From a virus (lineage: Duplodnaviria; Heunggongvirae; Uroviricota; Caudoviricetes), in IMG/VR virus record IMGVR_UViG_2718218304_000002: DNA of 40,150 bases; one strand, given 5' to 3'. Position 1 is the stretch's first letter. The number at the start of each line of letters is the position of its first letter. Shown here piece after piece: positions 1,239 through 38,619 of the stretch. Under the pieces are notes generated by a model, which was not told the DNA's origin, searched no databases, and was given only the letters and a program-made list of their open reading frames with translations. The position numbers and the translations under genes are program-made.

Positions 1239-1753
1239 CTACGGCAGTGCTGGCCATTCAATATCCTGTGCAGTTGACGTATCAACACGGTTCAGCAATA
1301 CCCGATACTTTTTCCATGCTTCCAGCAACGAGATTTCTTCCTCCGTTGCAATTTCCAGATCTGCAGCATCCTGAAGCGGCGCAATATGCTCACTGGCTAC
1401 CTGCATCAGGTTGTTTTTTGTTTCTTCCGCCTCCCGGATCCGGAACAGTTTTTCTGCTTCCGTATCCTTCACCCAGGCTGTGCCGTTCCACTTCTGAAAC
1501 TCCCCTTCCGGCGATAACCAGGTAACATTTTCCGGTAACGGACCGAGTTCAGAAATAAATAACGCGTTGCCGGAAGCCACGTCATAAACCGTTTTACCCC
1601 GATGATCTTCAACGAGATGCCACGATGACTCATCACTGTTGAAAACAGCCACGAAGCCAGCCGGAATATCTGGCGGTGCAATATCGGTACTGTTTGCTGG
1701 CAGACCTGTATGAGGCGGAATATATGCATCACCTTCACCAATAAATTCATTAG
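1239..1753 (-). pseudogene. Tail fibre assembly protein (Tfa), 5' end replaced by IS911 terminal sequence
   Basis: ORF 1239..1802 translation has Tfa-family core ([30 protein letters not shown]...); its first ~16 codons (1754..1802) are encoded by the IS911 terminal repeat, so the native 5' end and the upstream tail-fibre gene are missing. Confidence 0.7.
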
Positions 1754-1825: not shown

Positions 1826-3801
<1,976 letters not shown>

Positions 3802-3873
3802 TATGGCACCTGTGTTGTTCTGAGGTGAGCATATCACCTCTGTTCAGGTGGCCAAATTCAGTAAACCACTTCA

Positions 3874-4056
3874 GTGGCTTGTGGCTGGTTTTTTCCTCCA
3901 GGCCTGACGGCTGAATACCTCACTGATCGCTTCTTTGACTGCGCCAGCTACTGGCGCATTAATCCTTTCGAATTGCTGAATATGCCGATCAGTGAAATTC
4001 CCTTACTGGTCAGTCAGGCAAACAGGATAGAGCAGGAGAAACGCACACATGGCTGA
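3874..4056 (+). pseudogene. 3' remnant of a tail gene (possibly a tail assembly chaperone) truncated by IS911
   Basis: 60-codon ORF starts with GTG immediately at the IS911 boundary and ends 8 bp into the tape-measure gene; position suggests the gene upstream of tape measure. Family not recognised. Confidence 0.3.
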
Positions 4057-5884
4057 ATTTGAGCTTAAGGCGTTGATCACCGGTGTCGACAGGCTTTCTC
4101 CCGCGCTGTCGAAAATGCAAAAGAAAATCCGGGGATTTAAACGCCAGGCGGAAGAAGCGTCACAGGGTGGGCTGGCGCTTGGTGGCGGACTGGCAGCGGG
4201 TCTGACGCTTTCCCTGAAATCTTATGCCGATCAGGAAAACGCCGCCACCGGGCTGAAAGTCGCCATGATGGATGCGAACGGCGAGGTTGGAAAGAGCTTT
4301 CAGGACATCAATAAACTGGCTATTGGCCTGGGTAACCAGCTACCCGGTACAACGGCTGATTTCCAGAACATGATGCAGATGCTGGTGCGTCAGGGGATCC
4401 CGGCAGAAAACATTCTGGGTGGTGTGGGTAAAGCGACAGCTTATCTTGCGGTACAACTGAAAAAAACACCGGAAGCGGCTGCTGAGTTTGCTGCAAAGAT
4501 GCAGGATGCTACCGGAACGGCGTCAGAAGACATGATGGGGCTGTTCGACACTATCCAGAAGGCGTTTTATCTGGGTGTTGACGATACCAACATGTTGTCC
4601 TTCTTCACTAAAACCAGCTCTGTTCTGAAGATGGTGAACAAGGACGGTCTTCAGGCTGCACAGAGCCTTGCCCCCATCAGCGTCATGATGGATCAGATGG
4701 GGATGAACGGGGAGTCGGCAGGTAACGCCCTGCGAAAAGTTATCCAGTCCGGATTAAGCGTTAAGAAAATCAGGGACGTCAATAAAATCATGGCCCGCCA
4801 GAAACTCGGGGTACAGCTCGATTTTACTGACGGCAAAGGAAGTTTTGGCGGTCTTGATAACATGTTCAGGCAACTGGCAAAGCTGCGAAAACTGACCGAC
4901 GTTAAGCGAACAGGTGTACTTAAGGCAATATTTGGTGATGATGCCGAAACCCTTCAGGTGGTCAATGCACTAATCGATAAAGGAAAGGATGGCTACGATC
5001 AGATCCAGCAGAAGATGAATAAACAGGCCAGCCTGAATAAACGTGTTCAGGCCCAGCTTGGTACGCTGTCCAACCTGTGGGAGGCAATGACGGGGACCGC
5101 AACTAACGGCCTTGCGGCTATTGGCGGCGCATTTTCTGGTGACGCCAAAAATATCACGCAATGGCTGGGGGAGTTAGGGGAAAAATTCACGAAGTTTGCG
5201 GATGAAAATCCCCGGGTTATTCGCGGCGTCGTCGGGCTTGCTGCCGGTCTTGCGATTCTGAAACTGGGATTGATGGGCGTTGGCGGTGCCATCAGTATTG
5301 TCAGCAGGATCATGTCGATGACGCCGATTGGAATGATTGCGACGGCGATAGCCCTGGCTGCGGGATTAATTATCACTAACTGGGATGTTGTCGGACCTTA
5401 TTTCAAGAAGCTCTGGGAAACCATTGGTCCTTATTTTGAGGCTGGCTGGGAACTTCTGAAGATGGTTTTTGCCTGGTCGCCGCTGGGGATGGTAATCAAT
5501 AACTGGGGACCGGTTGTTAAGTGGTTTCAGGATATGTGGGACAAACTGAAGCCAATTATTGAGTGGTTTACCGACAGTTCCGGTGACACGGTCGATGCCA
5601 TTAACTCTGCGCAGTGGGGCGCGGGTGCTTATGATGCTTATGGGACGGGAATACCGGCACGGGGATACACACCTTATCAGGCGGTAGATCCGGCTCAGTC
5701 AAACAACGCCTCCGGTGCCACAGGCCCGAATCCCTTCATGATTAACAAAGCTTCTGCGCCAAAAGTTGATGGTGAGATCAAGGTCTCTTTTGTGAATTCG
5801 CCTCCGGGTATGCGGGTTATGGAAACGCGATCCAGCGGTTTTGATGTCAGCCATGATGTTGGCTATACGCGCTTTGGCAGGTAA
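4049..5884 (+). CDS. Phage tail tape measure protein
   Basis: 611-aa ORF, Ala/Gly-rich with coiled-coil-like N-terminal half and hydrophobic central segment; followed by Mu N-like and P-like genes. AGGAG 10 nt upstream of ATG. Confidence 0.75.
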   Translation: MAEFELKALITGVDRLSPALSKMQKKIRGFKRQAEEASQGGLALGGGLAAGLTLSLKSYADQENAATGLKVAMMDANGEVGKSFQDINKLAIGLGNQLPGTTADFQNMMQMLVRQGIPAENILGGVGKATAYLAVQLKKTPEAAAEFAAKMQDATGTASEDMMGLFDTIQKAFYLGVDDTNMLSFFTKTSSVLKMVNKDGLQAAQSLAPISVMMDQMGMNGESAGNALRKVIQSGLSVKKIRDVNKIMARQKLGVQLDFTDGKGSFGGLDNMFRQLAKLRKLTDVKRTGVLKAIFGDDAETLQVVNALIDKGKDGYDQIQQKMNKQASLNKRVQAQLGTLSNLWEAMTGTATNGLAAIGGAFSGDAKNITQWLGELGEKFTKFADENPRVIRGVVGLAAGLAILKLGLMGVGGAISIVSRIMSMTPIGMIATAIALAAGLIITNWDVVGPYFKKLWETIGPYFEAGWELLKMVFAWSPLGMVINNWGPVVKWFQDMWDKLKPIIEWFTDSSGDTVDAINSAQWGAGAYDAYGTGIPARGYTPYQAVDPAQSNNASGATGPNPFMINKASAPKVDGEIKVSFVNSPPGMRVMETRSSGFDVSHDVGYTRFGR

Positions 5885-5944
5885 TGAAAAATTAATCTGT
5901 TAATGAGTCCCACTCCGGTGGGATTTTTTATGTACGGAGTTTAT

Positions 5945-7273
5945 ATGACGTGGAAAGACAGACTTCAGGACGCGTCATTTCGCGGTGTGCCGTTTAAGGT
6001 TGAAGAAGAAAGTGCGGGAACCGGTCGTCGTGTGGAAACGCACGAATACCCGAACCGCGACAAACCCTATACCGAAGACCTGGGGAAAATCACTTTCCGC
6101 CCGTCCATCACAGCTTATGTGGTGGGAGATGACTGCTTTGACCAGCGCGATCGCCTGATTGACGCGCTGAATAAACCCGGTCCCGGCACGCTTGTCCATC
6201 CGACTTACGGTGAGCTGAAAGTCTGTGTTGACGGGGAAGTTCGGGTCAGCACATCGAAGAGTGAAGGGCGTATTGTCCGCTTTGACCTGAAGTTTGTCGA
6301 AGCGGGAGAACTCTCTTACCCCACTTCAGGTGCGGCGACGGCGCAGACGCTGATGTCATCCTGTTCTGCACTGGATGACTGCATCAGTGACAGCTTCAGT
6401 GGTTTCAGTATCGATGGCGTGGCAGATTTTGTGCAGAACGACGTCGTCGGTAATGCCAGCACAATGCTTGGGTATGTTTCTGATGCGATGAAAGTGGTGG
6501 ATTCTGCCGTATCGGATGCCGCCAGGCTGTTGCAGGGGGATATCTCGGTACTTCTGCCGCCGCCATCGTCAGGCAAAAATTTCGTTGAGCAGGTGCAGAA
6601 AATGTGGCGTACCGGGAAACGCCTTTATGGTAACGCCAGCGACCTGGTCACCATGATCAAAACGCTTTCCGGTGTCAGCCTCGGCAGCGATCTGCAACCG
6701 CGCGGCGTCTGGAAAACGGACAGTAAAACCACCGCCACGGCGACGCAGCAGCGTAACGTGGTTGCCAGCACCCTTCGTACGACCGCAATCAGCGAAGCGG
6801 CGTATGCCGTCACCCGATTGCCTGCGCCAACAATTTCTGCGGTGATGCAGAATGCCGCAGTGGGGCAGGCAACAACACCCGCGCAGAGCACTGGCTGGCC
6901 TTCCGTCACGCATCCGGCACTGAACAATGCACCGGCGGTGAAAAACACGGTTGACCTGCCGACGTGGGAAGAACTGACTGACATTCGCGACACACTGAAT
7001 ACGGCAATTGATAAGGAGTTGTCCCGTACAACCAGTGATGCGCTGTTTCTGGCGCTGCGCCGGGTGAAAGCAGATCTGAATGCGGATATCAACACGCGCC
7101 TTGAACAGTCTGCACGGATCATTCAGCGCACGCCGGATGAGGTTTTACCCGCGCTGGTGCTGGCGGCGACCTGGTTTGATAACGCGGCGCGTGACGCGGA
7201 CATTATCCGGCGTAATGCCATTACACATCCCGGCTTTGTGCCGGTGATCCCTCTGAAGGTGCCAGTGCAATGA
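5945..7273 (+). CDS. DNA circulation protein (Mu N / gp43-like)
   Basis: ORF 5903..7273; start at MTWKDRL (5945) has GGAG 5 nt upstream. Assigned by recalled similarity to the Mu N family and by position between tape measure and the P/D-like gene. Confidence 0.6.
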   Translation: MTWKDRLQDASFRGVPFKVEEESAGTGRRVETHEYPNRDKPYTEDLGKITFRPSITAYVVGDDCFDQRDRLIDALNKPGPGTLVHPTYGELKVCVDGEVRVSTSKSEGRIVRFDLKFVEAGELSYPTSGAATAQTLMSSCSALDDCISDSFSGFSIDGVADFVQNDVVGNASTMLGYVSDAMKVVDSAVSDAARLLQGDISVLLPPPSSGKNFVEQVQKMWRTGKRLYGNASDLVTMIKTLSGVSLGSDLQPRGVWKTDSKTTATATQQRNVVASTLRTTAISEAAYAVTRLPAPTISAVMQNAAVGQATTPAQSTGWPSVTHPALNNAPAVKNTVDLPTWEELTDIRDTLNTAIDKELSRTTSDALFLALRRVKADLNADINTRLEQSARIIQRTPDEVLPALVLAATWFDNAARDADIIRRNAITHPGFVPVIPLKVPVQ

Positions 7274-7705
7274 ACGACAATGTCACGCTACGGGTAAATG
7301 GCCGGGAGTGGAATGGCTGGACATCGGTGCGCATCGGTGCCGGTATTGAACGGCTGGCGCGGGATTTCAGTGTGGAGATCACCCGCCAGTGGCCGGGTGA
7401 TGAGGGTATCACCACGCTTCAGCCGCGCATTAAAAACGGTTCAAAAGTGGAAGTGCTGATTGGTGATGAGCTGGTGATCACCGGCTGGGTGGAGGCGACG
7501 CCCGTTCGTTACGATGCCCGTTCGGTCAGCACCGGTATTGCCGGACGTAGTCTGACGGCTGACCTGATTGACTGTGCAGCCGAACCGACACAGTTTAACG
7601 GACGCTCGCTGGTGCAGATTGCGCAGGCGCTTGCTGCGCCTTTCGGCATTGAGGTGGTGAACAGCGGTGCGCCGTCGGGTGTTATTCCTGATGTTCAGCC
7701 TGATC
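7270..7705 (+). pseudogene. Mu P (gp44) / P2 D-like tail protein, N-terminal ~145 codons, truncated by IS66
   Basis: Start overlaps N-like stop (ATGA). Native reading ends ...GVIPDVQPD at 7705, where the IS66 terminus GTAAGCG begins; the rest of ORF 7270..7827 is IS sequence. Confidence 0.6.
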
Positions 7706-7742
7706 GTAAGCGTGCAGCAAGAACCGTATTGACGGGGATGTG

Positions 7743-15684: not shown

Positions 15685-17142
15685 TTAGGAGCGCCAAAAA
15701 AAACCTGAAAACAATATAATAACAGGATAAATTTCAAGGCGACCAAGAATCATAGCTATGCACATTAAACATTTTGCAATGTCATTAAGCACTCCGAATG
15801 ACGATGCAGTAGCCCCAAAACCTAATCCCATATTATTAATACATGCAGCCACTGTTGCAAATGATGTAAGAAAATCATATCCCATACCATTTAACACCAG
15901 TATAAAAAACACCGTGAAGAGAGTATAAAGAAAAAAGAAACTCCATACAGACCTCATTACACGATCTGTAACTATCTTCCCTCCTACATTTACACTCAAC
16001 AACGCTCTGGGATGAGAAAGCTGATTTATCTCGTGTTTGCTTTGTTTGAAAAGTATAAGAAATCGAAGTGACTTAATTCCACCACAAGTTGAACCTATAC
16101 ATCCCCCAAAGAAACTTGACAACAGCAAAAACACTATCGTGTGCGTGGGCCAACTTGCATAATCCTGCGTAGCTAAACCATTATCAGTGAGCATGGAGCT
16201 GGCAAGAAAAAACGAATGAATAAAACTTCCATGCAAGTCATACATACCTATATGCCAGACCTGGAAAGAGGTAACAATGATCACCCCTAAGGCTATTAAC
16301 AGAAAGAAACGAAGTTCAATATCTCTGATTAAAGGTTTTATCGTTTTCCTGCTAATAACAATATACCAAAGAGTGAAGTTGAAAGCCGATAGCAGGGAAA
16401 AAGAACCAGCCACCAGCTCAACCAAATAGTTATTAAAATATCCGATACTCTCGCTATGAGTTGAGAAACCACCAAGCGAAACTGTGGAAATCCCGTGACA
16501 AATAGCATCAAACAAAGGCATTCCTGCAAGTCTATAACAGACAATACAAGCAATACCTAATAAAGAATAAGTTATCCACAGTGTCCGTGACGTATCGGCC
16601 AGGCGGGGAGTGAGTTTGTCATCCTTAAATGGCCCCGGCATTTCTGACTGATAAAGCTTTGCACCACCAATACCCAATAATGGCAATACAGCAACCGCCA
16701 GAACAATAACTCCTAAACCACCTATAAAATTTAACTGTGACCGATAGTACAAATATGCCCGAGGTAATGAACTAACATCATCAATTACAGTTGCTCCTGT
16801 TGTTGTTATTCCAGAAACCCCTTCAAACAGAGCATCAATGAACGTTAAATTAAGTTCTGAGTCAATCCATAAAGGGAATGCACTAATAACAGAAAACAAA
16901 ATCCAAAACATTACAATTATAATAAACCCATCACGGGTACGTAATTGAATGCCAGATTTCTTAGTTGTATACCACGCTCCGCCACCAATGCAAAAAAATA
17001 TAACGAAAGTTATAAAGAAAACAAACAGGCTTTTTTCTTTATAAAACAATGCTACAACCATTGGTGGCAACATTGAAAGACTATAGAGCCAAACCAGGAA
17101 CCCACACATATGAGTAACAACTCTTACATGAGATGTATTCAT
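15685..17142 (-). CDS. trkG: Trk-system potassium uptake protein (TrkH/TrkG family)
   Basis: Polytopic membrane protein with repeated GxG-containing pore-loop motifs; 485 aa from MNTSHVRVV; AT-rich coding sequence; same position as trkG in Rac. Confidence 0.85.
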   Translation of the reverse strand: MNTSHVRVVTHMCGFLVWLYSLSMLPPMVVALFYKEKSLFVFFITFVIFFCIGGGAWYTTKKSGIQLRTRDGFIIIVMFWILFSVISAFPLWIDSELNLTFIDALFEGVSGITTTGATVIDDVSSLPRAYLYYRSQLNFIGGLGVIVLAVAVLPLLGIGGAKLYQSEMPGPFKDDKLTPRLADTSRTLWITYSLLGIACIVCYRLAGMPLFDAICHGISTVSLGGFSTHSESIGYFNNYLVELVAGSFSLLSAFNFTLWYIVISRKTIKPLIRDIELRFFLLIALGVIIVTSFQVWHIGMYDLHGSFIHSFFLASSMLTDNGLATQDYASWPTHTIVFLLLSSFFGGCIGSTCGGIKSLRFLILFKQSKHEINQLSHPRALLSVNVGGKIVTDRVMRSVWSFFFLYTLFTVFFILVLNGMGYDFLTSFATVAACINNMGLGFGATASSFGVLNDIAKCLMCIAMILGRLEIYPVIILFSGFFWRS

Positions 17143-19679: not shown

Positions 19680-20269
19680 TTTTCCTCACATATGTCATAT
19701 AGTAAAGGATTATATATACCGTTGTTTTGGACGCTCAAACAGCGAATCAGATCAAATAAAACGCACATTTGTTAACATTTACACAAAGTCTGCGTGGGAT
19801 ATTCTGAAAGAATATCCATAATGTGGAGAGAATCTATTGAAGTGCATGGTGCCGGGTGCCTCCCGGTGAACAAAATGTTCGTGATACCTGTCGGCGACAG
19901 AAAAGGTTAATGGTATCACCCCACCGCACAGGGGGATTCACCATGCAGGAGTTTTCTTAGCAAACTCACTGCGCGCCCGGCAACTCCCAACCACATAAAA
20001 TGCGGAGTTTGTGGTATTTATGCATATAACTCGCAGGAATTATCTTAAAAAACTGATGTCGATCCGGATTAAAAAGAAGCAGGTCATCATCAGATGACTG
20101 GAAAAAAGGAAAACAAAAAATACTCATCATACAGTTTTGATTGCAGGGATGAGCCTGCTATGCACAATATGCAGAATATAAGCAAGATAAAAATATGCAG
20201 GCATATTATTTCGGATTTTGTTATTAACACAACCTTTTTAATAATCATTTGGCATACAATAAACCAGCC

Positions 20270-22152: not shown

Positions 22153-22593
22153 TTCTCAATCTCTCGATGGCGCAGTGCAGCAGATGCCAGCTGTTCAGGC
22201 TGACGTATAAAGTATAAATAAACTGGTTCCAGTGTAAAGCCCCCACCTTAATGGAATAAAAACCAAACAACAGATTGCTGGGATACAAACAACGCTTATT
22301 ATTAAAAGCGGTTAAACAAATTAAATTTTAATGTTATGCAAATTTGTCAGATCACCATAATATCTCATTTGAAAACCGCTGAAATAACAGCCCTATCAGG
22401 GTTAATCATATTAAGGTGAGTAAATATGGAAAACAACAAATCTGTACATTACGTTCCTTTTTTATCTGTAATACTTTTTGTTTTATGCTGTGCGTGGGCA
22501 TTATTTTTATAAAAATATTTACAGATGAAGTAAACCCGCCAATCAGGTTAACTGTGGCTGCGTTGAGGATGCATAATACATCAGAGGTTGCGG

Positions 22594-22603
22594 GGATTTC
22601 TCC
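22594..22603. repeat. IS186 target-site duplication, left copy (GGATTTCTCC)
   Basis: Identical 10-mer flanks both IS186 ends (22594-22603 and 23943-23952). Confidence 0.85.
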
Positions 22604-23942
22604 CATAAGCGCTAACTTAAGGGTTGTGGTATTACGCCTGATATGATTTAACGTGCCGATGAATTACTCTCACGATAACTGGTCAGCAATTCTGGCCCAT
22701 ATTGGTAAGCCCGAAGAACTGGATACTTCGGCACGTAATGCCGGGGCTCTAACCCGCCGCCGCGAAATTCGTGATGCTGCAACTCTGCTACGTCTGGGGC
22801 TGGCTTACGGCCCCGGGGGGATGTCATTACGTGAAGTCACTGCATGGGCTCAGCTCCATGACGTTGCAACATTATCTGACGTGGCTCTCCTGAAGCGGCT
22901 GCGGAATGCCGCCGACTGGTTTGGCATACTTGCCGCACAAACACTTGCTGTACGCGCCGCAGTTACGGGTTGTACAAGCGGAAAGAGATTGCGTCTTGTC
23001 GATGGAACAGCAATCAGTGCGCCCGGGGGCGGCAGCGCTGAATGGCGACTACATATGGGATATGATCCTCATACCTGTCAGTTCACTGATTTTGAGCTAA
23101 CCGACAGCAGAGACGCTGAACGGCTGGACCGATTTGCGCAAACGGCAGACGAGATACGCATTGCTGACCGGGGATTCGGTTCGCGTCCCGAATGTATCCG
23201 CTCACTTGCTTTTGGAGAAGCTGATTATATCGTCCGGGTTCACTGGCGAGGATTGCGCTGGTTAACTGCAGAAGGAATGCGCTTTGACATGATGGGTTTT
23301 CTGCGCGGGCTGGATTGCGGTAAGAACGGTGAAACCACTGTAATGATAGGCAATTCAGGTAATAAAAAAGCCGGAGCTCCCTTTCCGGCACGTCTCATTG
23401 CCGTATCACTTCCTCCCGAAAAAGCATTAATCAGTAAAACCCGACTGCTCAGCGAGAATCGTCGAAAAGGACGAGTAGTTCAGGCGGAAACGCTGGAAGC
23501 AGCGGGCCATGTGCTATTGCTAACATCATTACCGGAAGATGAATATTCAGCAGAGCAAGTGGCTGATTGTTACCGTCTGCGATGGCAAATTGAACTGGCT
23601 TTTAAGCGGCTCAAAAGTTTGCTGCACCTGGATGCTTTGCGTGCAAAGGAACCTGAACTCGCGAAAGCGTGGATATTTGCTAATCTACTCGCCGCATTTT
23701 TAATTGACGACATAATCCAGCCATCGCTGGATTTCCCCCCCAGAAGTGCCGGATCCGAAAAGAAGAACTAACTCGTTGTGGAGAATAACAAAAATGGTCA
23801 TCTGGAGCTTACAGGTGGCCATTCGTGGGACAGTATCCCTGACAGCCTACAAAACGCAATTGAAGAACGCGAGGCATCGTCTTAACGAGGCACCGAGGCG
23901 TCGCATTCTTCAGATGGTTCAACCCTTAAGTTAGCGCTTATG
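22604..23942 (+). mobile_element. IS186 (IS4 family), intact, 1,339 bp
   Basis: Terminal inverted repeats CATAAGCGCTAACTTAAGGGTTG at 22604 and its reverse complement ending 23942; single transposase ORF; flanked by a 10-bp direct repeat. Confidence 0.9.
22659..23771 (+). CDS. insL: IS186 transposase
   Basis: 370 aa from MNYSHDNWSAILAHIG..., matching recalled IS186 InsL; IS4-family signature ...YRLRWQIELAFKRLK. Confidence 0.9.
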   Translation: MNYSHDNWSAILAHIGKPEELDTSARNAGALTRRREIRDAATLLRLGLAYGPGGMSLREVTAWAQLHDVATLSDVALLKRLRNAADWFGILAAQTLAVRAAVTGCTSGKRLRLVDGTAISAPGGGSAEWRLHMGYDPHTCQFTDFELTDSRDAERLDRFAQTADEIRIADRGFGSRPECIRSLAFGEADYIVRVHWRGLRWLTAEGMRFDMMGFLRGLDCGKNGETTVMIGNSGNKKAGAPFPARLIAVSLPPEKALISKTRLLSENRRKGRVVQAETLEAAGHVLLLTSLPEDEYSAEQVADCYRLRWQIELAFKRLKSLLHLDALRAKEPELAKAWIFANLLAAFLIDDIIQPSLDFPPRSAGSEKKN

Positions 23943-23952
23943 GGATTTCTCC
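23943..23952. repeat. IS186 target-site duplication, right copy (GGATTTCTCC)
   Basis: See left copy. Removing the IS and one repeat copy reconstructs GCGGGGATTTCTCCCCGC, a GC-rich hairpin. Confidence 0.85.
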
Positions 23953-23964
23953 CCGCTGGTCCTC

Positions 23965-24120
23965 TTACTCCCCAAGTTCGTAAGCTGTGAAGACAGCGAC
24001 CTCCGTCTGGTCGGTTCGGATTCGTACCTCGCAGAGGTCTTTCCTCGTTACCAGTACCGTCACTATAACGGTTAAACAGATGACGATCAGGGTGATTAAC
24101 ATCGCCTTTTGCTGCTTCAT
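23965..24120 (-). CDS. hok: Hok/Gef-family type I toxin (51 aa), with in-frame upstream mok-like extension to 24177
   Basis: MKQQKAMLITLIVICLTVIVTVLVTRKDLCEVRIRTDQTEVAVFTAYELGE matches recalled HokD/RelF-type toxins; ORF 23965..24177 adds 19 upstream codons; the leader upstream (- strand) has a hok-type 5' hairpin (GAGGCTATCTGCC...GGCAGATAG). Confidence 0.8.
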   Translation of the reverse strand: MKQQKAMLITLIVICLTVIVTVLVTRKDLCEVRIRTDQTEVAVFTAYELGE

Positions 24121-24168
24121 AGCCCGCTTCTTCTTGCCTTTCAGCACGTAAGAGACTAACCTACGTTT

Positions 24169-24235
24169 GTAAGGCATAGATTGGGCCCCAGATTAATGTT
24201 AAGCCTCTTGCCGGATGCGTAATATCAACTGGGAC
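24169..24235 (+). ncRNA. Putative Sok-like antisense RNA (approximate ends)
   Basis: On + strand, opposite the mok start: -35 TTGCCT (24134-24139), 17-bp spacer, -10 TAACCT (24157-24162) give a start near 24169. The 3' end is not defined. Confidence 0.3.
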
Positions 24236-24694
24236 TTTTTCTATCTGCCTTTGGTTTTCATGCCCAAGGCAGATAGCCTCAAGCCCCCGCAGCCATACTA
24301 TTTAACCCCCTTTACTTCGCCAATATGAAATCAATCAGAAAGGCGATCCATAAGAACAATAGCAAGACAATAAATTGCCACCACAGCCGCAATAGCCAAC
24401 GCACACTTGAGAACCAGCACGACAACCTCCTGTATTGGACGTGCACCTGCCCTGATAAATATGAGGCTGTCTCGTCAGTGATTCAATACAACTATTGGGT
24501 ATAGTTTCTGTGATTTTGTTCTGTAGAAATGGAATACAACAACCAGTCACTACCAGCACTTCTTTAAATACGCCAAGTCCGACGGAAGCCAACATCTAGT
24601 CTGCTTTGAACGAGGAGCTAACTTTGGTGTATATAGAAACATAATCACTACAGGTAGTTCCGAAAAAATTTCTCTATCGTGATACTTGCTGGTT

Positions 24695-25744
24695 TTATTT
24701 TAATCTCTGTAATTTTTTACGCAGAGCATTAACTCGTCTCTGAACCCCTATTTTTGGATTAAAGCTCAAAGCTTTTTCATAGGCATCAAGAGCATCACTA
24801 AAGTTACCAAGTAAATCATTTGCTTCACCTTTGATGCGAAATGCGGCTGCAGCCCAGTCAGTTCGGTCTTTCGCTCCTTCATTAAGAGCCATTTCAATTG
24901 CTTTCAATGCTTTTTGAGCATTCTTCTCACTGGGATGTTCTCTTAAAAGCGCTCTCGCGGCCTCTACTTTAAGGTTGAAATTTCCTTTATATAGACAAGC
25001 ATCTTTATACGCTTCCACGTCAATGGGAATACCGATGGCAGTGTATCTGAAGTATCCAATATTTTTGCATTTCACTTTCAGCGATCTTAGCCCCCCATTT
25101 TCATCGAGATCGAAGAAATAACTATCAGCCCATCCATACTCAGGTTTAATGGAAAATATTGTTGTTTTTGACCACAGATTTATTACCTCAAGGATATTTC
25201 CATCTTTACCGGGCGCTGCGGCTGTCTGAACCGATGCGTATTTACCACAATGAGAAATTCCGATATTATAGATATTTGCTTCATAATGACGTCTAAACTT
25301 TTCATTTCCTTCAACATCAATAGCAATCAAATCAGCTTGCAGCGCAGAACCAAATCCAGCGTCATGAACAATATAATCACCTGTGTCAGCGACAGCAGCA
25401 TTAAATGGTCGGGCAATAGTTCTGAGCTTATGAAGGATACGAAAAGTTGGTTTATTAACTAAAACAACTGTTCCAAATCCACTTTCCCGGTGCCCTCCCC
25501 TTCCATTGCCATCAAAGTCACTACAGCCTACAACCCAATGTTTGTTTGCAGACAGATACGCCTGTCCAAAAAAATAAGGAGAATCAATAGTAAGCCAATC
25601 GTTTTCGATTGATATATTTCCGTTTTGTTTCTTGAGTTTAGGAGTTATGTTAGCTGTTAACTCATGCAAACTTGAAGGCGTCATTGTTTTTGCAGAAGTT
25701 ATCCTGGAGGTAAGCAAATTGAATAGTTGTGAAATAAATCCCAT
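24695..25744 (-). CDS. Hypothetical protein with C-terminal TPR-like repeats (349 aa)
   Basis: AT-rich ORF; AGGAG 9 nt upstream of ATG; C-terminal ~100 aa form TPR-like helical repeats; N-terminal ~250 aa unrecognised. Confidence 0.5.
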   Translation of the reverse strand: MGFISQLFNLLTSRITSAKTMTPSSLHELTANITPKLKKQNGNISIENDWLTIDSPYFFGQAYLSANKHWVVGCSDFDGNGRGGHRESGFGTVVLVNKPTFRILHKLRTIARPFNAAVADTGDYIVHDAGFGSALQADLIAIDVEGNEKFRRHYEANIYNIGISHCGKYASVQTAAAPGKDGNILEVINLWSKTTIFSIKPEYGWADSYFFDLDENGGLRSLKVKCKNIGYFRYTAIGIPIDVEAYKDACLYKGNFNLKVEAARALLREHPSEKNAQKALKAIEMALNEGAKDRTDWAAAAFRIKGEANDLLGNFSDALDAYEKALSFNPKIGVQRRVNALRKKLQRLK

Positions 25745-38222: not shown

Positions 38223-38417
38223 ATGAGATATGACAATGTTAAACCATGTCCATTTTGTGGTTGTCCATCAGTAACGGTGAAAGCCATTTCAGGATATTAC
38301 CGAGCGAAGTGTAACGGATGCGAATCCCGAACCGGTTATGGTGGAAGTGAAAAAGAAGCACTCGAAAGATGGAATAAACGAACCACTGGAAATAATAATG
38401 GAGGTGTTCATGTATAA
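38223..38417 (+). CDS. ralR: Restriction alleviation protein RalR/Lar
   Basis: 64 aa from MRYDNVKPCPFCGCPSVTVKA... within ORF 38184..38417; Cys-rich zinc-ribbon-like. Confidence 0.7.
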   Translation: MRYDNVKPCPFCGCPSVTVKAISGYYRAKCNGCESRTGYGGSEKEALERWNKRTTGNNNGGVHV

Positions 38418-38619
38418 AATTACCGCTACTATTGAAAAGGAAGGTGGCACTCCTACTAACTGGACAAGATATTCAAAATCTAAACTAACGAAATCAGAAT
38501 GCGAAAAAATGCTCTCAGGTAAAAAAGAAGCAGGCGTTTCCAGAGAGCAGAAAGTAAAACTGATAAATTTTAATTGCGAGAAACTTCAGTCCTCGAGAAT
38601 TGCATTGTATTCAAATTAA
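38410..38619 (+). CDS. Small prophage protein (69 aa), YdaC-like
   Basis: From MYKITATIEKEGG... within ORF 38338..38619; start overlaps the ralR stop. Confidence 0.45.
   Translation: MYKITATIEKEGGTPTNWTRYSKSKLTKSECEKMLSGKKEAGVSREQKVKLINFNCEKLQSSRIALYSN

Follow-up and report, generated by a model that had tools for sequence, protein, structure and literature searches.

The 40,150-nt stretch of the virus record IMGVR_UViG_2718218304_000002 in IMG/VR (Caudoviricetes), in its full length referred to as the window, carries on its minus strand a toxin gene with an elaborate leader, the membership of which in the hok/mok/sok type I toxin-antitoxin family is hardly open to doubt. Very probably, the locus represents a hokD/hokW-type cassette that (i) is carried by a Rac-like lambdoid prophage as cargo of its nin/Q region and (ii) has been cut by the insertion sequence (IS) IS186; (iii) most likely, though with less certainty, it is silenced by its antisense RNA Sok and unable to activate. 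A hok/mok/sok-type locus inside a prophage had been proposed for positions 23943–24300 from the sequence alone (original prediction); protein family, RNA family, gene layout and prophage setting all agree with this proposal, the RNA family model RF01794 being matched and the toxin open reading frame (ORF) being conserved in many related genomes. The kind of locus is already known, since its toxin is annotated in RefSeq, its layout equals that of mokW/hokW/sokW and its IS186 lesion that of hokC and hokE in Escherichia coli K-12. The working of the locus, as outlined below, is inferred from the paradigm of plasmid R1.

Toxin gene and overlapping mok frame

The hok gene (23965–24120, minus strand) encodes a 51-aa product matching the complete Pfam HOK_GEF profile (positions 1–42 of 42; E=5.3e-21, 74.4 bits at a cut-off of 22) as well as PHROG 251 'MokW-like host killing' (3.9e-30), in accordance with its initial recognition as a Hok/Gef toxin. 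In E. coli strain D9 the hok product corresponds to RefSeq entry WP_021554378.1 ('Hok/Gef family protein'). Identical residues amount to 43/51 with HokW, 38/51 with HokC, 17/51 with HokE and 23/52 with the R1-type Hok.

The reading frame of hok extends upstream to an ATG at 24177, i.e., 19 codons ahead of the hok ATG, yielding a mok-like ORF of 70 aa (23965–24177, minus strand). This in-frame extension had been predicted and is the same as mokW: mok and hok agree in length and frame with MokW/HokW of 933W, and in frame also with MokC (69 aa). In K-12, mokC and hokC are likewise annotated in frame (16751–16960 and 16751–16903), the arrangement was found too in an R1-like IncFII plasmid, and among 123 related loci drawn from genomes as well as viral contigs, ~104 possess an in-frame ATG exactly 19 codons upstream (manual table count). 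In case of plasmid R1, the mok start codon occupies nt 116–118 and G176 is the last base of that of hok, so that both starts are 58 nt apart and out of frame (PMC9841398), which bears out the originally stated difference from the R1 overlap. Since an in-frame mok is the norm in the clade of the window locus, no novelty is attached to it.

Leader RNA and predicted Sok antisense RNA

The leader matches the full Rfam model RF01794 (model positions 1–157) at 24115–24288 (minus strand) with 92.4 bits (gathering score 59; E=1e-19), which settles the alignment to Hok/Sok covariance models envisaged at the outset. Within 22300–24700, a permissive E-value search of Rfam retrieved RF01794 as sole RNA family. 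The same model matches K-12 hokC at 118 bits and an R1-type plasmid locus at 87 bits. Despite its name ('sok'), RF01794 has the orientation of the hok leader, since in K-12 it matches the hokC strand (1602–1754, minus, of the K-12 stretch), with sokC being annotated inside this match on the plus strand. Therefore, the match in the window supports the leader and the sok region, but not directly an antisense transcript.

The candidate hok/mok promoter (24295–24323, minus strand) consists of the -35 hexamer TTGGCG (24323–24318), a 17-nt spacer and the -10 hexamer TAGTAT (24300–24295), and occupies the position of the family promoter. Its hexamers are present as originally proposed, although with only 8/12 consensus matches (manual count) they are weak and were not called by a promoter scan (see below); the -35 box falls outside the originally proposed interval of 23943–24300. 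The 5' end of the hok mRNA presumably lies at ~24288, where the Rfam model also starts. It is formed by the tac element GGGGGCTTGAGG (24277–24288, minus strand; family consensus GGGTGCTTGAGG), as judged from an alignment of 42 loci, and followed by a conserved 5' hairpin (CTATCTGCCTT ... AAGGCAGATAG; 24241–24276, minus strand). The latter was already noted in the original prediction, is located at 24276–24241 and is kept by compensatory changes in the 42 family members. Further downstream, AAGTCCC (24231–24237, minus strand) represents a ucb-like partner of tac in the 3'-processed, 'open' fold, according to the RNAalifold consensus.

On the plus strand, a Sok RNA of ~72 nt (24169–24240) is predicted from homology to sokW and sokC and from its fold, comprising an unpaired 5' tail that covers the mok start, a long imperfect hairpin and a terminal run of U (U5 tail). 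The annotated sokW of 933W maps to 24169–24239 and so begins at the very position predicted for Sok, 24169; mapping from K-12 sokC places Sok at ~24166–24245. The predicted fold (-16 kcal/mol) is similar in shape to that of K-12 SokC. For the candidate sok promoter (24134–24162, plus strand), composed of TTGCCT (24134–24139), 17 nt and TAACCT (24157–24162), the hexamers and spacing originally given are indeed present, the latter hexamer ending 7 nt before the predicted Sok start. With 7/12 matches (manual count) it stays below the threshold of the promoter scan, and its hexamers are identical in the canonical sequences of the family alignment.

Insertion of IS186 into the 3' untranslated region

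The left border of the locus at 23943 is not a natural end, since the junction with an IS186/IS421 element lies there. This element, which had escaped the original prediction, comprises 1339 bp (22604–23942, plus strand) with 23-bp terminal inverted repeats (CATAAGCGCTAACTTAAGGGTTG) and a transposase ORF (22653–23771, plus strand; Pfam DDE_Tnp_1, 1.6e-26) convergent on hok. RefSeq names the element at 22604–23942 'IS4-like element IS421 family transposase'. A 10-bp target duplication GGAGAAATCC, within GGGGAGAAATCCCC, is present at 23952–23943 and 22603–22594. Thus, the DDE transposase, the 23-bp repeats and the duplication at a G-rich ... C-rich site are all present as expected for IS186/IS421, and the terminal sequence of the element is identical to that of IS186A and IS186B of K-12.

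IS186 sits 22 nt past the hok stop codon, inside a conserved GC hairpin (GCGGGGA-GAAA-TCCCCGC) of the 3' untranslated region (3' UTR). Consequently, only a proximal stub (23943–23964, minus strand), containing the 5' arm and loop of the hairpin (GCGGGGA-GAAA-TCC...) and ending in one copy of the duplication, remains attached to hok. The displaced distal part (22531–22603, minus strand), which in intact alleles directly adjoins the hok stub, harbours the second duplication copy (22603–22594), the remainder of the GC hairpin, the fbi element CCTCAACGCAGCC (22568–22556, minus strand; CCTCAACGCACCC in the family) and a terminator (~22548–22531, minus strand) which in the window allele group has decayed to CCTGATTGGCGGGTTTAC (CCCGC-TTCG-GCGGG-T5 in the family). 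The fbi element and the terminator remnant are now ~1.35 kb away from the body of the hok mRNA.

Removal of the IS and one duplication copy reconstructs an empty site, which is found uninterrupted in strain S3 (99.8 % identity over 567 nt) and in NCTC9699 (99.6 %). At least 35 complete genomes contain the identical hok/IS186 junction, as counted from the matches listed at 100 % identity. A larger figure, 828 genomes with a match to 80 % or more of the junction, was set aside since it mixes hokC-type and hokD-type junctions. Likewise, four of the six viral contigs encoding the window Hok or a one-residue variant contain the identical junction.

In K-12, IS186A is located 22 nt after the hokC stop codon, convergent on hok as in the window, and IS186B 21 nt after that of hokE, in the opposite orientation; both reside in an equivalent hairpin GGGGAG(N4)TCCCC. 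From the sequences of the window locus, hokC and hokE, this hairpin of the hok 3' UTR looks like a recurrent landing site of IS186. A related observation comes from E. coli HS-01 (NZ_CP172817.1, 14168–19287), in which the hokC position of the chromosome, flanked by dnaJ and nhaA, is occupied by a hokD-type allele (WP_096282653.1) together with IS186. Its hok/IS186 junction is 100 % identical to that of the window, an arrangement that points to an exchange between hok paralogs tagged by IS186, either through allele replacement or through gene conversion.

RNA structure conserved in the family and altered in the window allele

The RNA structure was assessed in the alignment of 42 diverse loci with the reconstructed window sequence placed first, considering the tac/fbi pairing, the 5' hairpin, the Sok-target hairpin and the 3' hairpin. 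Across the family, 96.3 % of the cells are paired (~41 % with the partners slid) and 12 pairs show compensatory changes, values which none of 500 shuffles reached. In case of the 5' hairpin, 99.5 % of the cells are paired and two pairs display compensation (pair 15–47: AU 29, GU 7, GC 4; pair 21–41: CG 38, UA 2). The Sok hairpin contributes six pairs with compensatory changes, the 3' GC hairpin covaries between GC and AU in 18 of the 42 sequences, and covariation is also apparent for the tac/fbi pairing. The RNAalifold consensus pairs columns 1–8 (tac) with 54–60 (ucb). In a canonical member, partition function analysis pairs tac with fbi in the full-length RNA (P 0.9–1.0) and with ucb after trimming to the 3' hairpin (~0.6); this computed switch reproduces the R1 model of PMC9841398.

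The window copy fails in two of these features. Firstly, the tac/fbi fold-back, still given in the ancestral locus, is disrupted by the 1339 bp of IS186 lying in between. Even in the reconstructed allele the duplex contains two mismatches and reaches only -13.9 kcal/mol as compared to -21.5 in canonical members, with a pairing probability of 0.5–0.66 as compared to ~1.0. The unpaired tac/fbi cells of the alignment (pairs 3–404, 4–403 and 5–402) belong to the window allele group, where tac reads GGGGGC, a state confined to this group (GGGTGC in 98/120 loci), and fbi reads GCAGCC, where the family ends with ...GCACCC. A more upstream mRNA 5' end including GGCTGC (24294–24289), the perfect partner of the altered fbi, was rejected, because the start would lie only 1–2 nt past the -10 box and GGCTGC stands upstream also in relatives with a normal fbi. 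Secondly, IS186 splits the 3' GC hairpin preceding the terminator, reducing the local stability from -21.0 to -10.4 kcal/mol.

Several control sites deviate in addition. The mok ribosome-binding site is GGGG (24189–24186) instead of GAGG in the family (column 103: A in 40, G in 2 sequences), the hok ribosome-binding site is AAGAAG (~24135–24130), found in the window allele group only (AAGGAG in 108/120 loci), and the hok -10 box is TAGTAT as compared to TAGAAT in relatives. Overall, the leader of the window allele departs from the family at 6 of 93 columns that are at least 90 % conserved, in contrast to 0–2 in most E. coli relatives; the coding region holds just three changes. If the transcript is taken to end at the IS junction, folding predicts tac to be paired with ucb (P 0.89–0.98).

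Proposed regulation and its likely loss

In analogy to plasmid R1, an mRNA starting from ~24288 on the minus strand would encode mok (70 aa) and, in frame, hok (51 aa), the latter being a small toxin of the inner membrane. Sok (~72 nt), made constitutively from the plus strand, would be complementary to the translation-start region of mok; its pairing would block mok translation and thereby the coupled translation of hok, and trigger cleavage by RNase III. The transcript cut by IS186 could not adopt the inert, tac/fbi-locked full-length fold and would lack the protective 3' hairpin. Due to the loss of both lock and hairpin, it may fold directly into the open tac/ucb form that is the target of Sok, such that no stable pool of latent mRNA would accumulate; the weakened ribosome-binding sites of mok and hok may lower translation further. 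Loss of the lock together with weakened tac/fbi complementarity, ribosome-binding sites and -10 box thus points to a copy that is Sok-silenced and does not activate. That it is crippled in this sense, i.e., unable to perform delayed killing like hokC and hokE of K-12, is regarded as somewhat probable. For K-12 gef (hokC), PMC3562002 describes the IS186 insertion as thought to disrupt fbi and normal mRNA processing.

A number of observations weigh against this reading. To begin with its transcriptional basis, the ends of the hok mRNA and of Sok, 5' as well as 3', are inferred from homology alone, and a consensus promoter scan of 23850–24450, requiring at least 9/12 matches, reported no promoter for either hok or sok. 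Since both candidates are below this threshold, they are supported by positional homology rather than by hexamer quality. The empty scan at this threshold and the degradation of several control sites would be compatible with the absence of any functional element, i.e., a chance ORF with chance hairpins, or a dead pseudogene devoid of RNA or protein output. Such an explanation is most improbable, considering the open reading frame with its Pfam (E=5e-21) and Rfam (92 bits) matches, the covariation of the structure across the family, promoter hexamers at homologous positions and the occurrence of the identical protein in many genomes and viral contigs.

Other observations against loss of function concern the integrity of the parts. 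The Hok ORF is open and intact, with every amino-acid difference recurring in other loci, and the window allele has also preserved the hexamers of the sok promoter and the hairpin of Sok. Moreover, the IS-free sister allele of strain S3 displays the compensatory changes G5A and C57T in the tac/ucb stem, which argues for selection on the RNA until recently. According to PMC3562002, the K-12 gef mRNA ends inside IS186, ~200 nt past the stop codon, and is still transcribed and antisense-regulated; since gef carries the same IS186 lesion, 'crippled' need not mean silent. IS-free chromosomal hok loci are also reported not to mediate post-segregational killing (bioRxiv 10.1101/2025.08.07.668861), and IS186 may therefore add little to the inactivity of the window copy.

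The intact hok ORF, sok promoter hexamers and Sok hairpin would accord with a prophage module that works fully despite IS186, in which Sok would keep Hok off in the lysogen and a drop of Sok, e.g., upon induction or phage attack, would allow Hok to aid lysis, prophage retention or abortive infection, as in case of hokW-sokW of Sp5. The latter, to which the locus is 88 % identical, is toxic, neutralised by SokW and doubles the release of Sp5 (PMC8621323). The persisting transcription and antisense regulation of K-12 gef with the same IS186 (PMC3562002) and the retention of the IS-interrupted allele in at least 35 genomes point in the same direction. However, 1.35 kb separate fbi and terminator from hok, only half of the 3' hairpin is left in place, and states that are nearly invariant in the family have been lost at tac, the -10 box and the ribosome-binding sites of mok as well as hok. 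Furthermore, decay has affected the Rac-like prophage too, which in the D9 annotation carries IS66, an IS3-like element and structural genes in truncated form, leaving little for an aid to lysis to act on. A fully working module is therefore an unlikely alternative to the Sok-silenced state, albeit the main one.

One may also speculate that IS186 rewired the locus, with sequence from the IS end serving as substitute fold-back partner of tac, and with activation brought about by processing within IS186 or by the convergent transposase transcript. Two predictions of this kind add to the points against a silenced copy: tac can pair with IS186 positions 43–57 (23900–23886) at -19.5 kcal/mol, i.e., stronger than with its own fbi (-13.9), and folding of a transcript extending to 23775 places tac on another IS segment (~23815–23804) with P ~0.9. 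An end of the K-12 gef mRNA inside IS186, ~200 nt past the stop codon, as reported in PMC3562002, would accord with this. However, the -19.5 pairing is only marginally better than chance, since a pairing of equal strength arose in 11 of 500 shuffles and in 4.5 % of the other 300-nt segments of the window, and the partner of tac shifts with the assumed 3' end. In addition, hokE carries IS186 in opposite orientation, such that the same internal IS186 sequence is not presented there. Rewiring is accordingly considered quite improbable. Slightly less probable still is the more general model in which the hairpin GGGG(N6)CCCC is the recurrent IS186 site and the IS end replaces fbi, which would tie toxin activation to IS186 transcripts or processing. 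The Sok-silenced copy unable to activate thus represents the preferred reading.

Relation to known hok loci

The closest characterized counterpart is mokW/hokW/sokW of the Stx2 phages 933W and Sp5 (VT2-Sakai), with 88 % DNA identity over 95 % of the query. It comprises the same 70-aa mok in frame with a 51-aa hok (sharing the stop codon in 933W), and pairwise alignment with 933W places the ATG of mokW at 24177 and that of hokW at 24120. The sokW gene of 933W (71 nt) is located on the opposite strand, where it covers the initial 9 nt of mokW, as is predicted for Sok in the window. Both loci are cargo of lambdoid prophages. The hokW-sokW system of Sp5 was demonstrated to be a toxin-antitoxin system, with a toxic HokW neutralised by SokW and a dependence on Hfq and, in part, on RNase III, and to double phage release after treatment with mitomycin C (PMC8621323). 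In contrast to mokW/hokW/sokW, the window copy resides in a Rac-like prophage upstream of DUF1367/DUF1364/DUF1133 genes, has its 3' UTR split by IS186, and shows private changes that affect the -10 box, tac, fbi and the ribosome-binding sites of mok and hok.

The K-12 locus hokC (gef)/mokC/sokC shares the in-frame mokC 19 codons upstream and the convergent IS186A, but its Sok hairpin is 18 nt shorter; moreover, hokC and hokE are paralogs at core-chromosome sites, while the window locus belongs to a prophage. The same prophage context is found for alleles that RefSeq/PGAP annotates as 'type I toxin-antitoxin system toxin HokD' (hokD, relF), whereas the window product is named only 'Hok/Gef family protein'. 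The K-12 hokD in the Qin prophage has reportedly lost its mok/sok leader through rearrangement; unlike this copy, the window locus retains the full leader. Common to the R1 hok/mok/sok locus are tac, the 5' hairpin, ucb, ribosome-binding site and start of mok, an antisense Sok (predicted in the window) over the mok start, the 3' GC hairpin, fbi and the terminator. Differing from the window, mok of R1 is out of frame with hok, its 3' UTR contains no IS, and the plasmid-borne locus was shown to mediate post-segregational killing. In case of R1, the toxicity of Hok, its neutralisation by Sok, the instability of Sok as opposed to the stable toxin mRNA, and the cleavage of the duplex by RNase III have been shown (PMC9841398).

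Prophage setting and distribution

Positions 7706–40150 of the window agree to 99.99 % with the Rac region of E. coli D9, comprising intR, xisR, ralR, recET, kilR, sieB and racR to pinR. Within this region, hok is located between the gene of a TPR protein and genes for DUF1367, DUF1364 and DUF1133 proteins, i.e., in the late regulatory (nin/Q) region. Alleles that are 90–94 % identical over the reconstructed locus and occupy the same prophage position upstream of DUF1367 are annotated as HokD. Similar DNA is present in 4713 of 5426 complete E. coli genomes, and a scan of the IMG/VR viral contigs yielded 560 relatives of the Hok protein.

Just upstream of hok, the TPR protein (349 aa; 24695–25744, minus strand) is encoded, followed in the D9 annotation by a DUF262-domain gene; both may represent accessory or defence cargo. 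Two small hydrophobic ORFs flanking hok are unannotated (29 aa, MLVLKCALAIAAVVAIYCLAIVLMDRLSD, 24331–24420, minus strand; 28 aa, MENNKSVHYVPFLSVILFVLCCAWALFL, 22426–22512, plus strand). Searches of Pfam and PHROG gave no match for either of these two, which may have arisen by chance. Besides hok, the same Rac-like prophage contains another type I toxin-antitoxin system, consisting of ralR and the nearby antitoxin RNA RalA, which was identified by a full-length Rfam match at 38416–38594 (minus strand; 220.6 bits). Further Rfam matches in the prophage are IS009 (1273–1471, minus strand; 220.9 bits) and STnc100 (19790–19976, minus strand; 86.6 bits), the latter being present at the equivalent place in strain S3. 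Since positions 2814–3873 are inverted relative to the Rac region of D9 and 3874–7705 have no counterpart there, the left part of the prophage, near IS3-like and IS66 elements, is arranged differently from that of D9.

Implications

Beyond correct annotation, the significance of the locus is small. The genome annotation names the Hok protein only, and leaves the mok frame, the sok RNA (~24169–24240) and the cut by IS186 unmarked; automated counts of toxin-antitoxin systems would therefore score a probably disabled locus as intact. Caution is also advisable when antitoxin genes are placed from 'sok' matches to RF01794, which report the toxin strand. For the family, the window locus joins hokC and hokE as the third paralog in which IS186 has entered this 3' hairpin, adding to the picture of E. 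coli hok copies that have been struck there repeatedly.

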